IMG/VR virus record: IMGVR_UViG_3300011226_000001
Location: 204,225-268,224 of that record
Length of the DNA: 64,000 nucleotides
Source: a virus
Taxonomy: Duplodnaviria > Caudoviricetes
Reading direction: 5' to 3' (one strand)
Below the pieces are notes generated by a model. That model was not told where the DNA came from. It ran no database searches and saw only the letters and a program-made list of their open reading frames with translations. The position numbers and the translations under genes were made by a program. Of the stretch, positions 25,276 through 28,654 are shown piece after piece (position 1 is the first letter of the stretch; each line of letters begins with the position of its first letter).

Positions 25276-27039
25276 ATGAACCTCATTAAAAAGCAGTCCT
25301 CGATCATTCGTGATCTGAGTATCATGCCGTTAACCGTCAGCCGAATTGGCGATGCGTTTGTTGGCCTTAGCTCCAGCAACGTTGCCTATGCTTGGCGTCA
25401 CGGTGAAATCTTTGACTTCGCTGCTGGTAGCGATGTACGCTTCGAATCACTGAATGCGAATACCATCGAACGTATCAGCGGCCTGAACTTTGCGGGTAAG
25501 CACGAAGATGTAGGTACAACCGTTTTCATGTCCAGCACAAGCGCCGTGCATCTGCATCTTGGCGATAAGCGCGAACCGTATTCTGTAGCGTCTTCATTCG
25601 ACCTGATGCCGGCCGTGCGTGACTTCGCTGCATCGCTGTCTAATACCGGTAAGGCAATGGAGATTGCTTCTGAGTCTGCCGGTGCTCGCACTTACGCTAC
25701 GTACACAGGTAAGAAAGTCGTTGTCGATGACGCTAACGACGAGTATGACCTTGAGCTGGAGAAGGGCGACAAGTACAGCATGGTTTATCTGAACCGTGAC
25801 CGCTATGAGTTGCGCCTGAAAGATGAACCGAAGATTGTGTTTATCGTTCGTGGTCATCTGCGTGTCGCTAACATCATTGGTCAGACTGAGTTCACTAAAC
25901 AGTTTGGCGCAATCGCTAACGACAAAGCAAACACGTTCCAGCCGGTCGGTGTTGTTGGTCGCAACATGGCTACGCCTTTGCAGATCAAGAAAGACACAGT
26001 TATCTACACGTACCGCAAGAAACACTATCTGCCGCAGAACCTTGTTGTTCCGCTTGAGAAGATTCTTGATGGTGCGTCACTGTCTAAGCTGATCGACAGC
26101 CTCAAGCCGGTTAAAGAAAACAAGCATATCGTCAAAGGTAAGCTGGTGGGTGTTAAGCTGCCGCCGCTAGCTGGCGGTAAGAAGATTGCTTCTGACCAAC
26201 CTATTAAGAAAAACGTGCAGGCTGTTTACGGTGCGTTCTTCCCTGTGTCTGCCTCTCAGCCTAACCGTAGTCGTGTTGTCTTCGGTAAGACCGTGAAAGA
26301 AGCGCAGACGAAAGCGGTTGAAGCTGTTAATCGCATGGCGGTGCCGACAGACTACTACCTGTTCAGTACAACCACCAGCGATGAATTGTATGACCTCGCT
26401 AAGGGTGGCTCTGTGTTGATTCGCGCTACCGGTGTGTTGCAGCATACGTATGCCAATGCGAAGCACGTATCGCTCGGCTACATGGACAACCAGACCGAAC
26501 TGCGTGATCCTGTGAAAGTAGGCGTGCCTGAGTTGCGTGTTGCTGCTATCAATCAGAACACGAAAGAGGTTGTCAAAGAAGTGCTGCGTCTTCTGACAGA
26601 AGGCTACTTCAACACAGGTCTGCATCTGTCTGTGCGTCAACCGGAAGAAGCAATCAGCTTCGAAGGTACATTTGACCCACGTACTCGCGATCAGCTTACT
26701 GGTATCGGCCGCCGCATCGCTGCGTATCTCAAGCAGAACGGTGTGAAGCTGGAGAACGGTATGATTCGCGCTGCGTTCGGACAGAAACGTGCAGAACTGC
26801 GATTCAAGCTGCCTACGCTTTCAGGCGCTGCTTTGCAATCTGTAAATAAGATTCAGACAGACGAACCAACTCTGAATGCTCCGATTTATGCGACCATCAA
26901 GCCTAAACAGCCGACTGTCGAAATCACTGCATTCAACCGCCACACTGGTTACGTGACTGTACGCGCTCAACGCGGTCCTGAACTGTACTCTGAGCCGTAT
27001 GAAACTTTATATTCGAATATTGAACGTAAAGCGTTCTAA
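25276..27039 (+). CDS. large hypothetical protein, probable processed internal head protein
   Basis: N-terminal ~135 aa has several S-x-S motifs ending at IASESAG, followed by the domain shared with the 3056 and 12076 ORFs. Confidence 0.6.
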   Translation: MNLIKKQSSIIRDLSIMPLTVSRIGDAFVGLSSSNVAYAWRHGEIFDFAAGSDVRFESLNANTIERISGLNFAGKHEDVGTTVFMSSTSAVHLHLGDKREPYSVASSFDLMPAVRDFAASLSNTGKAMEIASESAGARTYATYTGKKVVVDDANDEYDLELEKGDKYSMVYLNRDRYELRLKDEPKIVFIVRGHLRVANIIGQTEFTKQFGAIANDKANTFQPVGVVGRNMATPLQIKKDTVIYTYRKKHYLPQNLVVPLEKILDGASLSKLIDSLKPVKENKHIVKGKLVGVKLPPLAGGKKIASDQPIKKNVQAVYGAFFPVSASQPNRSRVVFGKTVKEAQTKAVEAVNRMAVPTDYYLFSTTTSDELYDLAKGGSVLIRATGVLQHTYANAKHVSLGYMDNQTELRDPVKVGVPELRVAAINQNTKEVVKEVLRLLTEGYFNTGLHLSVRQPEEAISFEGTFDPRTRDQLTGIGRRIAAYLKQNGVKLENGMIRAAFGQKRAELRFKLPTLSGAALQSVNKIQTDEPTLNAPIYATIKPKQPTVEITAFNRHTGYVTVRAQRGPELYSEPYETLYSNIERKAF

Positions 27040-27069
27040 AATCTGTAAATAAAAATTGCAGATAGTAAT

Positions 27070-28049
27070 ATCAAGTTGTAGCAAGAGACTTACTTCGCGG
27101 GCAGTCTCTTGCTGGTCCATAAACTCACGCGCTGTATTTCTTGGCGGCATGTGAGCCTCCAGCCGGTTTGAGCTTATGCTCTGTAATCGTGAGGACAACC
27201 CCGGCACCCACGTGATGGACTGTTGCTCTGTCGCTGACGCCCATAAGGCCCAGCTCTTTTCATCTTTGTGACATGGCACGGCAGCAGCCTCTAGGCACGT
27301 AGACTGGTGGAACGTATTCTCAACGTTGTGACCACTCTTTTAGGGATAGCAGTTCGCAGTTACGCTGCCTGATGCACATTGGCTGGCAATAACAGTGTGC
27401 ATTGGGGAGATATCTACTCTCCATGACAATTCCACCAGCTCTTTCCTACCGATGTACAACACGGTGAGGGTATGTAGTGTGTCATCCAGCGGACGACTCA
27501 GCACACTGCGTACAGGATTGAACTGTAAGAGTCTTAATGTGATAAACATCCGCGACCCTCATGGGTGCTGTGCCTTTTCACGGTATCTAGGGAGTAAAAG
27601 AACGTAGACGAGATACTCAAGTGATGTTGGGCGACGAGCGACTCTGCGTTTGGTCAAAGCTGTACACAGCCTGTTGAGCATTGCCCTTAACAATGTTCAA
27701 TGGAGTGTGTCCGCGCCATGCTGCCGTTGACGTGCTGCCATAGCTTGCCCACTTTTCCGGGTAGTGAAATATCGTATAGGACTTGTTAGCGGTCAATCGC
27801 GTTCCTACCACGATCTAATGCACAACAAGAGCGATTGTTAAAGAGTGTATCAACCACCGCAGATCACCGATGGGTCACCTCCTTCGCTTGAGCGATGCTG
27901 TTAGGGCATACGGAACTTTTCCACTTTTTCCGCCGTGTGTCCTTGATGTGTTGTTCTTGTGTGCGGTTTCCGCAGCCCAGGCGGTAAAGAGAGAAAGAGA
28001 GTTGAAACCCTAGTGATGTTGGGCGAAGGGCAACTCGAAGTAACTTGAT
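27070..28049 (+). ncRNA. candidate large structured non-coding RNA (~980 nt), family not recognised
   Basis: No credible CDS in an otherwise gene-dense region; ends pair (atcaagttg 27070-27078 with taacttgat 28041-28049); many nested stems whose imperfections are G-U pairs on the + strand; duplicated 15-nt hairpin loop. Confidence 0.7.
27620..28026 (+). repeat. exact 15-nt direct repeat AGTGATGTTGGGCGA (27620-27634 and 28012-28026)
   Basis: Read directly; both copies cap hairpins. Confidence 0.9.
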
Positions 28050-28077
28050 CGACATTTGCAAATGTTTTACTTACAGT
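28049..28077 (+). promoter_or_regulatory. sigma70-like promoter overlapped by a 14-bp palindrome
   Basis: TCGACA(28049-28054)-17 nt-TACAGT(28072-28077); palindrome ACATTTGCAAATGT at 28052-28065. Confidence 0.55.
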
Positions 28078-28096
28078 AGAGACACAAGGAGCAAAC

Positions 28097-28255
28097 ATGA
28101 TTTTGTTCTACGTGTCGCTGATAGCAATCGTGATGCTTGGTCACTTGCTATCATGGTCCGAGAGTCACTTACAGTTGCCGTTTGATGCGGCTTCACTCTC
28201 GGTCAGTCACTCCGGCTTAGTAGCTTCGGCTACCGGGCACTCGCTTCGGGTGTGA
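28097..28255 (+). CDS. 52-aa small protein with hydrophobic N-terminus (below ORF-track cutoff)
   Basis: AAGGAG RBS at 28086-28091; MILFYVSLIAIVMLGHLLSWSESHLQLPFDAASLSVSHSGLVASATGHSLRV. Confidence 0.5.
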   Translation: MILFYVSLIAIVMLGHLLSWSESHLQLPFDAASLSVSHSGLVASATGHSLRV

Positions 28256-28284
28256 GGGAGTACGCGACACAAATCCAAGCATAG

Positions 28285-28320
28285 AAAGCGGGTGGCCTTC
28301 GGGTCGCCCGTTTTCGTTTC
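28285..28320 (+). terminator. rho-independent terminator with C(UUCG)G loop
   Basis: aaagcgggtggcc-ttcg-ggtcgcccgttttcgtttc. Confidence 0.85.
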
Positions 28321-28333
28321 TACTGCACACAAA

Positions 28334-28341
28334 GCTAATTT
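28334..28341 (+). promoter_or_regulatory. GCTAATTT putative late-promoter motif
   Basis: Between the terminator and the PAAR gene, 28 nt before ATG. Confidence 0.55.
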
Positions 28342-28363
28342 GTGCCTAACAGAGGAGAATATC

Positions 28364-28654
28364 ATGGGACAGAAAGCTATTCGACTAGGCACTGACCTGT
28401 CTACTGGTCATAACGGTTACTTCCCTGTTGTTCCGGCACAAGCATCGTCTAACGTGTTCGTAAATGGCAAAGGTAGTGTTCGTAATGGCGATAAGTACAA
28501 GCCACACTGGAAACCGAAGAAGCCACCTCATACAGGTACCGCTATCTCAAACTCCAGTGTGCGTGTCAATGGCAAGCCTGCCCAGCGAGCCGGTGACCCA
28601 AACAGTTGTGGTGACACTGCTTCTAACGGCAGCTCTAACGTGAGATTTGGCTAA
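28364..28654 (+). CDS. PAAR-repeat spike tip protein (gp5.4-like)
   Basis: GAGGAG RBS; AIRLGTD...SSNVFVNG...VRVNGKPAQRAGD...CG...GSSNV. Confidence 0.88.
   Translation: MGQKAIRLGTDLSTGHNGYFPVVPAQASSNVFVNGKGSVRNGDKYKPHWKPKKPPHTGTAISNSSVRVNGKPAQRAGDPNSCGDTASNGSSNVRFG

Follow-up and report, generated by a model that had tools for sequence, protein, structure and literature searches.

Structured non-coding RNAs longer than about 500 nucleotides (nt) are very rare outside ribosomes and introns. OLE, GOLLD and ROOL are each an unusual class of such RNA, and their functions are largely unknown, partly since their hosts are hard to work with. Homo-oligomeric, RNA-only assembly of GOLLD and ROOL has been shown by cryo-electron microscopy (PMC12286853). 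We describe here a giant RNA encoded in a 64,000-nt stretch of viral DNA (IMG/VR record IMGVR_UViG_3300011226_000001, positions 204,225 to 268,224; this whole stretch is called the window, and its numbering is used throughout). The window comes from a jumbo phage of 268,224 bp with direct terminal repeats, whose nearest relatives are Erwinia phages of the genus Alexandravirus. The RNA lies on the plus strand in a gap upstream of the gene for the PAAR baseplate spike. Over about 1.0 kb of non-coding RNA it carries upwards of 20 helices that evolution has maintained, those of a pseudoknot among them. It is previously undescribed and matches no known RNA family. In our reading, to which we give a probability of roughly 0.6, the folded RNA is itself the product and acts in trans, with a short encoded peptide as a second function.

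The gap is about 1.3 kb long, from the end of an open reading frame (ORF) of 587 amino acids (aa) at 27039 to the ATG of the PAAR gene at 28364. When the whole 268 kb was scanned on both strands, it proved to be the largest stretch in the genome without an ORF of at least 90 aa. A sequence-only reading of the window had pointed to a long gap between genes at this place, and such a gap is indeed present; the single ORF between 27039 and 28364 that is common to the relatives has 52 codons, and no other is conserved. With Rfam 15, the whole window gave 0 matches at the gathering score, the models including GOLLD, ROOL, OLE, HEARO, 6S, group I and II introns, RNase P, tmRNA, phi29 pRNA and CsrB. 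Relaxing the threshold to E<=10 for 26900-28450 brought up two microRNA models only, both on one hairpin, at 21 and 18 bits where 100 and 70 are required. A literature search, in which the papers on the genomes of AD1, the JA phages and PaBG were covered along with a jumbo-phage review of 2026, found no paper describing the RNA.

The interval is present in 44 phage records (Alexandravirus, Sasquatchvirus Y3 and the SNUABM_13 group) and in metagenomes. In 32 of the 44 records at least 80% of its length is covered at 70-88% identity, and it is found at 54-68% identity in Y3, the SNUABM_13 group, the metagenomic contig L159 and the joined contigs L028+L055. A gene-poor gap of 1.7-2.3 kb lies at the same place in Salmondvirus JA11 and the metagenomic contigs L160 and L161, where the flanking protein is 42-49% identical. 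All domains of the RNA occur in conserved order among the aligned relatives. Divergence of the RNA region is 0.18-0.45, below that of third codon positions in the gene next to it (0.34-0.51). Substitutions over 27070-28090 are without a three-base periodicity (mismatch by phase 0.29/0.29/0.31, compared with 0.15/0.10/0.40 in the neighbouring gene), and 395 of 458 pairwise indels in the RNA region are not multiples of 3. Because of the slower divergence, the missing codon periodicity and the non-triplet indels, we regard the region as under selection and not coding. Nor does 27070-28090 behave as a protein-coding gene or pseudogene, the longest ORFs differing among relatives.

In the collections searched, the RNA was found only in a single clade of jumbo phages, those of Erwinia and Dickeya, with chance-level matches elsewhere. 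A 14-mer scan of viral contigs gave only chance matches beyond the known relatives, and a specific two-block pattern retrieved the known phage clade alone from the same contigs. Among genome contigs this pattern picked out 4 contigs of metagenome-assembled genomes; their scores came from the pattern itself (short, G+C-rich partial matches), and we read them as chance. No second copy of domain A of the RNA (listed below) was found in the phage genome.

Evidence for folding was obtained by comparing the relatives. A consensus fold was computed with RNAalifold from 15 sequences; the alignment was made on sequence, so that pairing in variable hairpins, P1 among them, is underestimated. The consensus comprises 289 pairs, with 94.5% of alignment cells paired. 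Changes on both sides of a pair were seen for 124 of the 289 pairs, as against 67.5 +/- 4.1 after shuffling and 27-41 when the pairing partners were slid. Alignment cells changed on both sides numbered 417 (140 shuffled, 34-86 slid), and the covariation score was 0.326 (0.163 shuffled, 0.04-0.09 slid). Since this consensus is chosen partly for covariation, the window's own single-sequence minimum-free-energy (MFE) fold was also scored on the other 14 sequences, where 82.9% of cells were paired, compared with 37-42% for slid partners, and 140 pairs covaried, compared with 46-67.

The plus strand of 27070-28049 folds with an MFE of -348.6 kcal/mol, against -324.0 +/- 7.8 kcal/mol for 20 shuffles (z = -3.2), while the minus strand reaches z = -1.9 (20 shuffles). 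Consensus pairs contain 604 G-U or U-G cells and 54 A-C or C-A cells, and the minus-strand fold is less well kept among relatives than the plus-strand fold. We therefore place the RNA on the plus strand, as had been argued earlier from the G-U pairs; the putative promoter and the terminator also point rightward. The interval combines compensatory changes above controls, strand asymmetry and the lack of a coding signal, as a structured non-coding RNA does in general. The central claim of the sequence-only reading, that of an undescribed multi-domain plus-strand RNA and not of DNA cruciforms, a gene or a known family, is supported by every one of its own refuting checks that was run here: Rfam, conservation in relatives, covariation, folding against shuffles, and GC skew, which has no inflection at the locus. 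The parts of the RNA, from 5' to 3', are as follows.

27040-27072, plus strand: invariant block of 33 nt, identical in 13 of 15 aligned phages
27041-27051, plus strand: likely promoter box ATCTGTAAATA, inside the 33-nt block
27041-27048 with 27056-27063, plus strand: inverted repeat, inside the 33-nt block
27080-27113 and 27124-27155, plus strand: hairpins P1 and P2, with an AAAC linker between them
Within 27162-27300, plus strand: domain A, with closing helix 27162-66/27201-05, hairpin 27170-81 and the invariant junction CUGUAAUCGUGAGGA
Within 27162-27300, plus strand: domain B, with long helix 27210-32/27275-300 and apical hairpin 27233-54
27301-14/27324-38 and 27368-80/27394-406, plus strand: two hairpins, 96% of cells paired, 4 and 6 covarying pairs
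27471-80/27503-12, plus strand: hairpin capped by the invariant CCAGCGGACGACUCA, 9 of 10 pairs covarying
27558-71/27580-94, plus strand: hairpin with 7 plus 3 covarying pairs
27600-27651, plus strand: hairpin displaying copy 1 of the motif AGUGAUGUUGGGCGA (27620-27634), 8 of 11 stem pairs covarying
27659-70, plus strand: invariant hairpin, closed to a covariation test
27671-83/27691-703, plus strand: hairpin with the invariant loop CCCUUAA, 8 of 13 pairs covarying, the loop hairpin also present in JA11
27704-14/27726-36, plus strand: proposed helix that never varies, closed to a covariation test
27771-27860, plus strand: H-type pseudoknot of helix X (27771-81/27803-14) and helix Y (27789-93/27856-60), with inner hairpin 27818-23/27845-50
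27866-28036, plus strand: 3' domain, with helices 27871-74/27976-79, 27890-98/27948-56, 27903-13/27933-43 and 27963-73
27875-27884, plus strand: UCACCUCCUU, predicted to be single-stranded
27999-28036, plus strand: last hairpin of the 3' domain, displaying copy 2 of the 15-nt motif (28012-28026)
28097-28255, plus strand: ORF of 52 codons with a hydrophobic N-terminus, preceded by AAGGAG (28086-28091)
28284-28315, plus strand: intrinsic terminator with a 14-bp G+C-rich stem, UUCG loop and U run, about 50 nt before the PAAR start codon

When 17 members were folded singly, the same two hairpins P1 and P2 appeared in most of them with differing stem sequences; the pair was clear in 15 of 17, with one fold disrupted in Y3 and SNUABM_35, and 9 of the 10 pairs of P2 had changed on both sides. 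Domains A and B together have compensatory changes in 20 of 38 pairs, with C-G, U-A and A-U as variants in the closing helix of domain A, and the covariance model R1 scores 171.8 bits at 27162-27300 in the window. The pseudoknot was found by a helix scan. Helix X is paired in 94% of cells, 19 of them changed on both sides, and helix Y, which crosses it, is paired in 100%, with 13 such cells and four sequence variants, a fifth being present in L161; slid controls for these helices gave 20-48% paired and 0-4 cells changed on both sides. The helices of the 3' domain are paired in 95-100% of cells, with 2-7 covarying pairs per helix. The RNA also carries invariant single-stranded junctions and loops, among them the 15-nt motif AGUGAUGUUGGGCGA, which is displayed twice and has exactly two occurrences in the window. 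Over 10 nt, UCACCUCCUU matches what we take to be the 3' tail of 16S ribosomal RNA (the anti-Shine-Dalgarno region). Within it, ACCUCCUU is kept in all aligned members except Y3 (as CCUCCUU in two members), and ACCUCCU is also found in JA11.

The sequence-only reading had traced its stems by hand and had drawn the element as a closed unit of 980 nt with paired ends. Its structured RNA in the gap stands, but the closed outline does not. Five of its local hairpins are kept with compensatory changes: 27080-27113 (in per-sequence folds), 27371-27403 (99% of cells paired), 27470-27513 (88%), 27674-27700 (97%) and 27903-27943 (95%). The terminal stem 27070-78/28041-49 is not conserved, being 71% paired with 4-9 of its 9 pairs formed per sequence, and the five long-range stems fare no better. 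Pairing is 58% for 27114-20/27215-21, 73% for 27278-86/27719-27 and 69% for 27465-71/27555-61, none of which was confirmed; 27304-12/27430-38 is paired in 73%, its first strand belonging to the supported hairpin 27301-38, and 27819-34/27951-65 is paired in 75-85% without real covariation. All six rejected stems are without real covariation, and several of them clash with better-supported helices.

Covarying helices continue past 28049, through 28119-28261 and up to the terminator. Every relative keeps the terminator, its loop and stem varying in a compensatory manner, and nhmmer matched it in JA11 and L161. Upstream, the box at 27041 is an instance of ATCTGTAAA, which occurs 25 times in the genome compared with 2 for a reversed control. 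The motif is always co-oriented with the local genes and usually lies 20-100 nt ahead of a ribosome-binding site, and ATCTGTAAA(ta) is also present in JA11, L160 and L161. We regard it as a likely promoter motif of this phage group. Read as a sigma-70 promoter, the 27041 box was rejected, there being no -35/-10 pair with proper spacing. Genes behind such boxes include DNA primase, two DNA-polymerase genes and the phage sigma factor, and within the 64-kb virion block the box is found only at 26838-26846 and 27041-27049. Because it is common to primase, polymerase and sigma-factor genes, we infer that the 27041 promoter is of an early or middle class, placed inside a late-gene (baseplate) block. 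The 5' end of the RNA is probably near 27057, and the locus is most likely one rightward unit of about 27040-28320, giving an RNA of about 27057-28320, or about 1.26 kb. In place of the 980 nt proposed earlier, the unit would take in the small ORF as well.

The 52-codon ORF, which falls in the last fifth of the unit, is open in the same frame, with 47-53 codons, in all 17 relatives. Its product, a predicted membrane peptide, has a conserved, transmembrane-like N-terminus and a poorly conserved tail, and matches no Pfam or PHROG family. The message of the ORF is itself folded: within 28119-28261, helix 28158-65/28195-202 is 98% paired with 13 compensatory cells, and the other helices are 79-100% paired. 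More distant relatives retain parts of the locus. Model R1 gave weak collinear matches for domain A, at E = 0.02 in JA11 and at E = 9e-4 in L161, where the closing helix shows further compensatory variants in both, and a second model, R2, matched the pseudoknot region in L161 (E = 0.09). Two of the RNA domains can be recognised in Salmondvirus-like phages. JA11 also keeps the CCCUUAA-loop hairpin and GUUGGG motifs. No convincing match to R1 was obtained in L160, where the protein is 49% identical and the gap 2.3 kb.

Several observations concern the neighbourhood of the RNA. Its upstream neighbour and the additional small ORF found downstream in some relatives are as follows.

25276-27039: 587-aa gene, PHROG 32352, with a KMPT-N domain at residues 139-201
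L003 3700-3956, L007 2826-2954, L009 2823-2945 and L159 3826-3945 (numbering of those records): ORF of about 40 codons

The 587-aa gene constantly adjoins the RNA on its upstream side, even in relatives where the protein is 42% identical. In SNUABM_22 and SNUABM_16, a 20-codon ORF (MLFKIGYGDG..., 1425-1500 in L010 and L011) lies between this gene and the promoter box, and a shorter one (MYIGYGEG) is found there in L028 (5782-5806); the window is without it. The ORF of about 40 codons lies between the terminator and the PAAR gene in AD1, 2910A, SNUABM_3 and the metagenomic L159, and is likewise missing from the window; its product begins MCRSTDWN... in SNUABM_3 and L159, and the beginning is related in AD1 and 2910A. 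Deposited GenBank genomes (L004, L010, L011 and L013) have short hypothetical coding sequences (CDSs) annotated inside the RNA, in the equivalent of about 27040-27700 of the window. They occur on either strand, vary among the phages without being conserved, and are probably spurious calls. About 25-35 nt upstream of the PAAR start codon stands GCTAATTT (28334-28341; genome 232558), which is placed likewise before several plus-strand genes. It has 14 sites in the genome where about 8 are expected, a mild enrichment, and may be a second, perhaps late, promoter motif. The only other stretches of at least 450 nt in the genome without an ORF of at least 90 aa, 137409-138219 and 74989-75459, gave no Rfam or tRNA match.

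We propose that transcription would start at the ATCTGTAAATA box and end at the terminator, and that the RNA would be made together with the early or middle class of replication and transcription genes, though its gene lies among late baseplate genes. The folded RNA would then act in trans as a defined three-dimensional scaffold, as a component of a ribonucleoprotein (RNP) or as a decoy, with its invariant loops binding phage or host factors, and the peptide, encoded on the same transcript, would add a second function that can be separated from the first. A bolder version, which we offer tentatively, is that the RNA belongs to a functional class new among giant phage RNAs and has a defined tertiary architecture, being either a self-assembling particle or RNP or a decoy for polymerase or sigma factor (in view of the promoter-like junction and the twin loops), made early or in the middle phase to reprogramme the cell.

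A number of points weigh against a trans-acting RNA. The promoter class is deduced solely from which genes bear the box, and the 5' end, 3' end, processing, abundance and timing that we assign to the RNA are all read from the sequence. The consensus structure was picked by a method that rewards covariation, the alignment represents only about 10-12 independent lineages, and several helices are invariant and hence not open to a covariation test. No protein partner emerged, the phage having no gene for an L7Ae-family protein, CsrA or reverse transcriptase; for the 587-aa KMPT-N protein, considered as a possible partner, there was no sequence match in the PDB and no lead from the Atlas, and its AlphaFold2 model was unusable (mean pLDDT, the predicted local distance difference test score, 47). 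In addition, no terminator lies between the structured part and the peptide ORF, so that in this phage the two are probably one transcript, which would fit a giant leader too.

That leader is the strongest of the rivals, if still an unlikely one: a 1-kb cis-acting fold would regulate the 52-codon ORF at the level of translation, stability or timing, leaving the peptide as the sole product. The single terminator comes after both RNA and ORF, the ORF and its ribosome-binding site are kept in all relatives, the message of the ORF is tightly folded, and the conserved anti-Shine-Dalgarno-like stretch, predicted to be unpaired, offers one possible route, in which CCUCCUU (27878-27884) would mask the AAGGAG ribosome-binding site (28086-28091). 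There is, however, no covariation between the two: AAGGAG has become CAGGAG in several phages with no compensating change, and Y3, which is without the CCUCC stretch, keeps AGGAG. A fold of 1 kb with more than 20 helices and a pseudoknot is also far above the known leaders, all of which, to our knowledge, are far smaller. The homologous peptide ORF of JA11 has its own ATCTGTAAA box about 50 nt upstream and is separated from the RNA domains by more than 480 nt and by one gene or more, which argues that the RNA is not merely the leader of the peptide.

The class of the promoter box brings in a further explanation, which we regard as improbable, namely that the transcript serves replication. It would form an R-loop or primer, as at T4 oriF and oriG or in ColE1 RNA II, with its folding governing hybrid formation. 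The box is common to primase and polymerase genes, and the block right after it is invariant and rather A+T-rich. In T4, ori(34) has a promoter of the replication class within a late-gene block, as would be the case here. Against this, the minimum of the cumulative GC skew and the switch in gene orientation both fall at about 120-130 kb, with no change at the 231 kb of the locus, whose G+C content equals the genome mean of 0.49. About 100 bp is enough for a T4-type origin, which would leave 1.2 kb of covarying helices and a peptide ORF unexplained.

Less probable again is a decoy role confined to domain A, in which its UCUGUAA junction would bind the form of polymerase or sigma factor that reads ATCTGTAAA and help to switch that class off, in the manner of 6S RNA. 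This UCUGUAA resembles the promoter box and sits in a single-stranded junction that never varies and is held by a covarying helix; the sequence of the junction is CUCUGUAAUCG (27181-27191), a perfect AUCUGUAAAG box stands at the aligned position in JA11 and L161 with compensating changes in the flanking helix, and the phage encodes its own sigma factor. A 7-mer match within 1 kb is nevertheless expected by chance in about 6% of cases, the box in JA11 and L161 could be a plain internal promoter, no match was obtained to the 6S model of Rfam, and all but one of the many domains would be left unaccounted for. Hardly credible, finally, is the view that there is no single RNA here and that the interval holds a row of small hairpins with no relation to one another, sites that work at the level of DNA (packaging, protein binding, cruciforms) or the remains of a protein gene. 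In its favour, support is lacking for the long-range helices needed to join the domains, and short hypothetical CDSs are annotated within the interval in some GenBank records. Against it, DNA-only palindromes are excluded by the G-U pairs and by the strand asymmetry, the pseudoknot and multi-helix domains covary, the domains keep their order, and codon periodicity is missing from an interval whose annotated CDSs differ between phages.

The RNA would rank among the largest structured non-coding RNAs known, with strong comparative support for its fold that includes a pseudoknot, and coupled to a conserved micro-peptide. It is carried by lytic jumbo phages that can be cultured on laboratory strains of Erwinia amylovora and Dickeya solani (Alexandra, Y3 and AD1), which makes it genetically tractable. 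There are practical gains as well: the hypothetical CDSs deposited inside the interval need correction, and a likely promoter motif, ATCTGTAAA, has been exposed for the phage group.

How does the RNA compare with systems already described? It does not resemble a sponge of the CsrB/RsmB type, since the sole repeated loop is the 15-nt motif, present twice, and there is no array of like hairpins; the phage has no CsrA gene, and GGA enrichment was not formally counted. The 15-nt twin motif contains GUGAUG and CGA, letters that might belong to a K-turn or K-loop of the box C type (GUGAUG ... GA); no gene for an L7Ae-family protein, which would go with such a motif, was found in the phage. A search of the phage genome for base-pairing targets of nine invariant loops gave nothing above chance. 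Rfam detected no tRNA gene in the window, and no dedicated tRNA scan of the locus was made.

With the T4 origin transcripts and ColE1 RNA II it would share a non-coding transcript, a promoter class common to replication genes and a place in a late-gene region. It differs in having no skew or orientation switch at the locus, in its far more conserved structure, and in the peptide ORF and terminator attached to it. Domain A, if it mimics a promoter element inside a helix, recalls 6S RNA, whose Rfam model does not match and whose architecture is different; the likeness concerns one of many domains. Dual-function RNAs such as Staphylococcus aureus RNAIII/hld and SgrS/sgrT also combine a structured RNA and a short peptide ORF on one transcript, but the present RNA is two to five times larger and has no homology to them.

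A close likeness is to GOLLD and ROOL. Neither Rfam model matches by sequence or structure, and the present RNA is longer (about 1.0-1.26 kb), has a conserved small ORF and is found in one clade of Erwinia and Dickeya jumbo phages only. In its other traits it stands beside them. It is very large and multi-domain, has complexity at the level of a pseudoknot and is phage-borne, as GOLLD and ROOL, often found in phages or prophages, are; it sets invariant loops and junctions among covarying stems; and the mark of the GOLLD/ROOL type, a large, conserved, multi-domain covarying fold carried by phages, is found in it as well. The likeness is one of kind, not of homology.

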